Part shown: piece after piece, positions 31,134-31,725 of the stretch
How positions within the stretch are numbered: position 1 is the stretch's first letter
Layout: each line of letters begins with the position of its first letter
Source: Escherichia phage vB_Eco_F26
Sequence record: OP870145.1
Length of the DNA: 64,000 nt
Direction: 5' to 3' (one strand)
Position numbers and translations under genes: made by a program
The notes under the pieces: generated by a model
Seen by the model: the letters and a program-made list of their open reading frames with translations, nothing else
What the model was told of the DNA's origin: nothing
Database searches by the model: none

Positions 31134-31725
31134 CGTTATGTTCGATTGAGCTCGCTAATTCTCAACCCGTTCTCTTATGAACTGCTACATATTACTATGC
31201 AGACCAGACTATATCACAATCCCAGAGGGATTCTCCCCATTTCGAGTCGCTTGACCCTACGTCCGAAGACTAGTCGTTGAACCTTGCTTTGCAATTGTCG
31301 CCGTGCCATCGTTTATATGTTGATGGTGATAAATCTTTCTTATCACAATATGGACAATTCAATTGAATTCTATTTGGATTTAATTTACATCTGTCATTAT
31401 GTTTTAGATAAAATCCAGGACCTTTACCAATGTGACCACAGAAATCACATGTGATTTCTTTTTGTGCAGGATGGGTCCCGTTCTTAACCATTTCTAATGT
31501 TTTTGCTGATGTTCTTTTCTTATGGTCTTCCATCAGAATCTTTAGGTAGGTCCGTTAGCATCTATCCAAATTTTTCTATAGTTCAATTGTGCATCCTCTT
31601 AAAAGTATAATCATATTATACTAATTAAAGGTGCAAGCAAAACCTTGGCTGCTAGTTTTCCTATAAAGGACTTTCTAGCAATTAAAGGAGTTTTCGATAA
31701 ACGTTACCGTTTAAAGGCGCATTTT
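31134..31725 (-). mobile_element. group I self-splicing intron in nrdB (boundaries +/- a few nt)
   Basis: Exon 1 ends GCGU with U.G pair to intron GCGC (P1); intron ends in G; predicted junction restores conserved [11 protein letters not shown]. Confidence 0.65.
31270..31533 (-). pseudogene. truncated I-TevIII-like intron ORF remnant
   Basis: 87 aa with Cys-rich zinc-finger-like motifs but no HNH catalytic region. Confidence 0.55.

Follow-up and report, generated by a model that had tools for sequence, protein, structure and literature searches.

A T4-type group I intron with a decayed I-TevIII reading frame interrupts nrdB of Escherichia phage vB_Eco_F26

The nrdB gene of Escherichia phage vB_Eco_F26 lies on the minus strand of the 64,000-nucleotide stretch of DNA analysed here (the window; record OP870145.1) and is split by a 592-nt intron (31725..31134). 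We regard it as practically certain that this is a group I intron of the T4 family, subgroup IA2-like and carrying a decayed I-TevIII gene, which would still splice and could not home by itself. The feature is the T4-type nrdB group I intron, an ordinary element that has already been described, and it holds no new biology. The value of the locus lies mainly in its correct annotation as one spliced nrdB and a dead endonuclease gene; it also exemplifies the decay stage in the life cycle of homing endonucleases.

The DNA around the intron is that of a Tequatrovirus (T4-like phage). Exon 1 (31726..32401, minus strand) comprises 225 codons and the first base of a cysteine codon and ends with UUU GCG U. 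It is followed by the group I (IA2-type) intron, which extends over 592 nt from A31725 to the terminal G31134, and by exon 2 (30631..31133, minus strand), which begins with GU ACC UUU and includes the stop codon. denA (30193-30627) and rnlA (29016-30176) are neighbours of nrdB. A nucleotide search with 1.85 kb around the intron matched 904 records of T4-like phages; the region is 98.8% identical to that of Escherichia phages vB_EcoM_G8, FL23 and FL44, and the curated records of T4 and RB3 contain a joined nrdB CDS with I-TevIII annotated inside.

A preliminary description had proposed that the nrdB frame breaks off and resumes some 600 nt downstream, and that splicing recreates a conserved cysteine codon; all elements of this observation were found in place on the minus strand. 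The ORF 32401..31724 encodes the N-terminal 225 residues of the R2 protein, ends with EAIRFYVSFA and then runs into TAA. The ORF 31110..30631 carries on the same NrdB protein (MEIMEGNAK...) and is part of an open frame that resumes at 31133 and extends to 30631. Excision of 31725..31134 joins GCG T to GT ACC, which yields a TGT cysteine codon and a 392-aa ORF without internal stop; the spliced exons read UUUGCGU followed by GUACCUUU across the predicted junction. When all frame-preserving pairs within ±6 nt on each side were scanned, U31726/G31134 was the sole junction that restored the conserved protein at this site. The boundaries, proposed with a tolerance of a few nucleotides, are exact; the 5' exon ends in a U paired with G in the GCGU/GCGC helix P1, and the intron ends in G. 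Curated CDS lengths are reproduced as well: when T4, RB3 and U5 are spliced at the positions homologous to these, 598, 1091 and 1083 nt, respectively, are taken out, and coding sequences of the annotated lengths (388, 392 and 391 aa) are left.

The recreated cysteine is also encoded by the nrdB of intronless phages and present in E. coli R2. In the intronless phages FJ1 and RB32 the sequence TTT GCA TGT ACC runs uninterrupted across the insertion site, and a 300-nt spliced query was matched in one piece by intronless FJ1, JK1, RB32 and others with up to 98.7% identity. The spliced 392-aa NrdB aligns with residues 3-388 of E. coli R2 (1piy_A; E 1e-127), is free of gaps at the junction and has the iron-ligand and radical-tyrosine motifs LDSIQGR, FSETIHSRSY, ALEAIRFY and ARDEQLH, which are features of class Ia R2. 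At exon position -2 (31727) all 12 intron-containing alleles examined read GCG U and both intronless alleles GCA U. Since the G at 31727 pairs with the internal guide in P1, the G/A difference fits either the requirement of P1 or a co-conversion of the flanking exon.

It is hardly conceivable that the interruption is an intein or a split into genes-in-pieces instead of an RNA intron. The adjacent nrdA gene is split in the latter way, and a precedent is thus at hand; for nrdB, however, this reading was rejected, as exon 2 has neither a start codon nor a tail at the junction and the insert contains a full group I core. The intein reading was rejected because a stop is met at the first intron codon and further in-frame stops follow in the insert.

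The split nrdA itself is a more notable observation than the nrdB intron. The gene (34010-37178, minus strand) is divided into ORFs of 477 aa (35745-37178) and 329 aa (34010-34999), between which a 236-aa ORF for a mobE-like HNH endonuclease is located (34989-35699). Compared to the intact nrdA of G8, 935 nt stand in place of 31 nt, and the split point falls between NLCCEI (C439 in E. coli) and GLCTLSAF (C462). A search for a group I signal at the split gave none. FL23 shows the same arrangement, and 18 phage records contain the HNH ORF with an identity of at least 95%. In Aeromonas phage Aeh1, nrdA is split by mobE at the same structural position, and of the new tails in the present nrdA one is basic (QQTRLIKIKKSDVAKFYEANPGGIIQSK) and the other acidic (MNIDYEFVDEFYEDDEYTTIKVIENKG), which again agrees with Aeh1; the literature found on such a split of nrdA describes Aeh1 only.

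That the interruption of nrdB is a group I intron, as had been suggested, is supported by the catalytic core, for which the Rfam model, the ORF-less relative in phage PD112 and a pairing test provide the evidence. A search with the Rfam group I model had been named as a check, and its outcome was mixed: RF00028 matches 31425..31185 (minus strand) with 34 bits (E 1e-6 locally and 6e-5 for the whole window), which is below the gathering threshold of 50, and at that threshold the whole window gave 0 hits. In this alignment the 3' half with the R element, P3', P8, the S element and P9 fits well; some 300 nt of ORF and leader inside the P6a loop (L6a) cause the 5' half to be misplaced. The nrdB intron of PD112 (vB_vPM_PD112) is a natural ORF-less form of 304 nt, in which the whole ORF has been lost between ACAATTG repeats, and it matches the full RF00028 model with 68.6 bits (threshold 50). 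The core of the window intron is one base apart from this form, a G·U pair of P4 being changed to A-U. Moreover, group I cores from unrelated phages (of Staphylococcus, Bacillus, Vibrio and Yersinia) are similar to the last 150 nt of the intron, whose last nucleotide is a G (G31134), as group I requires.

The helices P1 to P9.2 were drawn by hand and checked on ten aligned nrdB introns from which the ORF had been excised (window, PD112, G8, RB3, T4, SEA1, DCP80, AV114, HY03 and SG1). In this alignment 99.4% of the cells are paired, compared with 38-44% when the partners are slid by 1-3 columns, the former percentage being inflated because the structure was drawn from the same ten sequences. 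Compensatory double changes were found in 9 pairs (18 cells) and in none of the slid controls (0 in 6/6), and 0/500 shuffles equalled the observed pairing values. The compensatory pairs are located in P2 (three), P5, P7.2, P9, P9.2 (two) and the hairpin at the ribosome-binding site (RBS) in the leader. P1, P3, P6, P7, P7.1 and P9.1 are invariant among the ten introns, and the changes in P4 and P8 are confined to one side; the covariation therefore supports the peripheral helices only. All core pairs can form in the window intron.

All helices are given on the minus strand. P1 (31717..31729) pairs exon GCGU (31729-31726) with intron GCGC (31720-31717) around the loop AAAAU and places the wobble U31726·G31720 at the 5' splice site; its four pairs are kept without variation in 10/10 homologues. 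P2 is the hairpin AAACG-GUAA-CGUUU (31699..31712), in which 3/5 pairs show compensatory double changes. The Rfam alignment of the near-identical PD112 intron together with pair counts places the 5' strand of P3 at 31690-31685, P4 at 31680-31675 with 31655-31650, the P5 hairpin at 31670-31659 and the 5' strand of P6 (GC) at 31649-31648, and the segment 31647..31690 contains the classical P and Q elements. The 5' strand of P6a (UUGCUUGCA, 31632..31640) pairs with the 3' strand at 31293-31284, and the I-TevIII ORF and its control region occupy the loop between them. The register of P6a is provisional because one position is mispaired in T4, HY03 and DCP80. An extended P6 of 13 bp (GGUUUUGCUUGCA with UGCAAAGCAAGGUU) was set aside for the classical 2-bp P6 (Q/R elements) plus P6a; both drawings fit the same data, and the columns concerned are invariant except for a C·A mismatch in the three phages just named.

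Downstream of the loop, the 3' strand of P6 (GU, 31282-31281) is followed by J6/7, the 5' strand of P7 (GACUA, 31275-31271), P7.1 (GUC-UUCG-GAC, 31270-31261) and P7.2 (GGGUC-AAGC-GACUC, 31257-31244), the last with one compensatory and one single-side change. The position of P7.1 and P7.2 between the 5' strand of P7 and the 3' strand of P3 (31238-31233) assigns the intron to subgroup IA. P8 (31231-31219) and the 3' strand of P7 (UAGUC, 31211-31207) come next, and the segment 31204..31293 contains the R and S elements. P9 (31202-31185) has a GUAA loop and, like P9.2 (31165-31146), compensatory changes; P9.1 (31182-31169) is located between the two, and a 3' tail leads from P9.2 to G31134.

GTP-dependent self-splicing is known for the T4 nrdB intron. 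By analogy with the work on T4 and RB3 the present intron would self-splice too, and its sequence indicates that this allele is very likely splicing-competent. With U31726 held in P1 through pairing to the internal guide GCGC, an external guanosine would attack after this nucleotide; the 5' exon thus released would then attack after the terminal G31134, and ligation of GCG U to GU ACC would produce the cysteine codon and an intact 392-aa R2. It appears extremely unlikely to us that the intron is present in a splicing-dead form, nrdB being a pseudogene and the host reductase supplying dNTPs. Such a state could be read from the RF00028 score of the window's own intron, which is under the threshold, and from one core substitution (column 60) by which the window differs from all nine other aligned introns. 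This substitution is, however, the change of the P4 pair from G·U to A-U, which preserves the structure. It is also the only base, a G-to-A exchange, that separates the ORF-excised window intron from that of RB3 apart from a loop indel, namely a loss of 6 nt in L6a; the rest of the core thus equals RB3, whose nrdB has an intact curated CDS join. Both exons are free of stops and frameshifts, and all iron-ligand motifs are kept.

The ORF remaining inside the intron (31270..31533, minus strand) encodes 87 aa, a methionine followed by 86 residues that correspond to residues 184-269 of I-TevIII. Its earlier interpretation as a truncated I-TevIII holds, as it aligns to the RB3 enzyme with 100% protein identity and one synonymous difference, lacks the HNH domain and keeps the zinc fingers. 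I-TevIII of RB3 (269 aa) has a Pfam HNH_3 domain at residues 4-48 (E 2e-11); a Pfam search with the 87-aa ORF gave no hit, the region of the HNH motif being deleted. Both zinc fingers of the type CX2CX12-13HX3C (motif according to Robbins 2007, PMC1865063) are intact, the first at 31449-31387 (C29-C32-H45-C49 of the 87-aa ORF) and the second at 31356-31291 (C60-C63-H77-C81).

Alignments with RB3, U5 and T4 locate the deletion junction at GAAGA (31526..31530, minus strand). The deletion comprises 491 nt, ends in a short GAAGA repeat and removed the HNH domain together with the linker (about residues 20-182); its end points are common to the window, G8 and T4. The data fit a single deletion event as well as a recurrent one for T4 and the window, since the A/C difference directly after GAAGA is a polymorphism that full-length introns, too, show in their right-hand repeat.

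Upstream of the junction a remnant of the original I-TevIII start is left (31542..31586, minus strand), consisting of TTG and 13 further codons that lead to a premature TAA. The latter results from the loss of 2 nt (TA), which among the aligned sequences is specific to the window and G8 and which also shifts the upstream ATG of T4 out of frame, with 87 aa remaining versus 97 aa in T4. The loss of 6 nt in L6a, common to U5, G8, SG1 and the window, removes the late-promoter consensus TATAAATA, of which no copy was found in 31134-31725. In T4 and RB3 this motif lies in the loop of a hairpin by which AAGAGG, the Shine-Dalgarno sequence belonging to the original start of I-TevIII, is sequestered. 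The hairpin itself is retained in the window (31595..31631, minus strand; MFE -9.8 kcal/mol, z -3.8) and includes one covarying pair (A-U / G·U / G-C). No Shine-Dalgarno sequence is present upstream of the ATG at 31533, and in a scan of the locus for sigma-70 promoters and terminators nothing exceeded shuffles. With its last ten codons and its TAG the ORF reaches into P6a', P6', J6/7 and P7 of the ribozyme core, and because of this overlap the deletion variants all stop upstream of ACAATTGCAAAGC.

The intron formerly bore the HNH homing endonuclease I-TevIII in its P6a loop; a 491-nt deletion between GAAGA repeats took the nuclease domain, the 2-nt loss cut the frame and the 6-nt loss took the promoter motif. 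Since nuclease domain, original frame and late-promoter motif are lost, the intron cannot home by itself.

We consider it quite unlikely, though less so than a dead ribozyme, that the 87-aa ORF with its zinc fingers is still expressed and that its product binds DNA or dimerises, for instance in the role of a repressor or of a partner poisoning the full-length I-TevIII of a co-infecting phage. The zinc fingers are intact and the ATG is kept, as is the dimerisation region, which was mapped to residues 194-241 within a protease-stable, zinc-binding and dimerising core of residues 194-269 (Robbins 2007, PMC1865063); the identity to RB3 over 86 residues could be taken in the same sense. Yet this identity reflects recency rather than selection, because there is only one synonymous difference, and for the same reason counts of synonymous versus nonsynonymous changes on the ORF remnant are uninformative. 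The late-promoter motif is lost and the ATG lacks a Shine-Dalgarno sequence. DNA binding was absent with construct 194C, and the smallest construct with this activity was 166C (Robbins 2007, PMC1865063); the putative product starts at residue 183. Finally, the ORF is fully deleted in PD112, CE1, BYEP01 and DCP80 and largely in SG1.

How such an intron persists is suggested by its surroundings. Between nrdA and nrdB lies a 530-aa ORF (32401-33993, minus strand) that shares 524/530 residues (99%) with the Hef protein of phage U5, which is a free-standing homing endonuclease of the Vsr-like type. The ORF takes the place of T4 mobE and nrdB.1, and its stop codon overlaps the ATG of nrdB. Hef is reported to cleave close to its own locus. 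The persistence of the T4 nrdB intron has been ascribed to co-conversion via the neighbouring free-standing MobE (Wilson and Edgell 2009). By analogy, co-conversion in the present phage may be driven by Hef, which makes this enzyme a candidate driver of the trans-homing of the dead intron. Spliced at the RNA level, the intron would be neutral for nrdB. As Hef abuts the nrdB start, hitch-hiking of an intron without nuclease is plausible, and the non-autonomous intron, by analogy with T4 MobE, probably survives in this way on the neighbouring nuclease.

Of roughly 900 phage records that have a T4-like nrdB, 128 contain the intron, and among the records listed most copies are full-length with about 1083-1096 nt. 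The T4-type deletion form (587-598 nt) occurs in T4 strains, RB59, G8, FL23, Lv5cm, LH2 and ESh36. AV114, a Mosigvirus, carries a different deletion, the right end of which is 13 nt further on, and its intron coincidentally also has 592 nt. A shorter form of 420 nt is found in SG1, and forms without ORF (304-309 nt) in PD112, CE1, BYEP01 and DCP80. At least four deletion types of I-TevIII are thus visible (T4 and the window, AV114, SG1, and PD112 with DCP80), and all decay forms (PD112, DCP80, SG1, AV114) spare the ribozyme core. The existence of several different deletion forms indicates that the nuclease domain was lost several times. One might go further and see in this repeated independent loss, in the sparing of the core and in the vicinity of Hef to the present copy a systematic hand-over of mobility to neighbouring nucleases, while the zinc-finger remnant might still serve in DNA binding or dimer poisoning, but we regard this extension as rather unlikely. 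The near-full-length I-TevIII gene of U5 (in an intron of 1083 nt) has a 2-nt frameshift of its own just past the HNH motif and, from its sequence, is probably defective in another way, by this frameshift and the same 6-nt promoter loss as in the window.

Several records of decay forms annotate the exons as two genes, and in that of DCP80 neither the intron nor the exon 1 next to it bears any annotation. In the FL23 record, the strand opposite to nrdB bears four small 'hypothetical protein' CDSs within the intron (5998-6604), which are probably artefacts of gene callers in ribozyme and ORF-remnant sequence. The two 'ribonucleotide reductase beta' fragments and the intron 'hypothetical proteins' of records like that of FL23 are parts of one spliced nrdB and of a dead endonuclease gene.

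Among known systems, the closest described counterpart is the nrdB intron of T4 (598 nt, with a defective I-TevIII), which was reportedly described in 1986 by Sjöberg and by Gott. It is inserted at the same site of the same gene between the same flanks (UUUGCGU before the intron, ACG at the intron end and GUACC after it), is 97.2% identical and shares the 491-nt deletion of the endonuclease ORF with identical end points. The preliminary description was silent on the identity with this textbook intron and on the end points shared with it. The deletion of T4 relative to RB3 is attributed to Eddy and Gold 1991 in later articles that cite this work (PMC2988022, PMC1865063). Compared with T4, the window intron has 592 nt; it has 6 nt fewer in the promoter region of L6a and thereby no TATAAATA, 2 nt fewer at the point where the ATG of T4 falls out of frame (ORF of 87 aa instead of 97 aa), and one additional A each in L5 and close to the 3' end. 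In P9, A-U and G·U stand in place of the G-C of T4, and in P4 an A-U is found against G·U in all others.

The RB3 nrdB intron (1091 nt) represents the intact state. Its ribozyme is the same but for one base and the loop indel, and it has retained the HNH domain, late-promoter motif and TTG start of I-TevIII, all three of which the window copy lacks; the RB3 intron homes, and its I-TevIII of 269 aa combines an HNH domain with two zinc fingers (Robbins 2007, PMC1865063). FL23 and G8 have the same 592-nt form with 99.3-99.5% identity, corresponding to three to four point differences, and FL44, like FL23, is 98.8% identical over the whole nrdB region. FL23 also shares the split nrdA and Hef as neighbours, while nrdA of G8 is intact.

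The window itself contains a further group I intron, located in td (about 38024-39033, minus strand, limits approximate), where RF00028 gives 37.3 bits, again sub-threshold, at 38069-38299. It contains an intact 245-aa GIY-YIG ORF (I-TevI, 38168-38905) and is flanked by thymidylate synthase exon ORFs (39034-39585 and 37709-38023). The td (I-TevI) and nrdD/sunY (I-TevII) introns of T4 belong to the same ribozyme class as the nrdB intron and likewise have their ORF looped out of the core. In both td and nrdD, the intron ORF comes after a late promoter and a hairpin that sequesters the RBS (PMC2988022). The two introns differ from the nrdB intron in that they reside in other host genes, encode GIY-YIG instead of HNH enzymes and have kept their ORFs intact.
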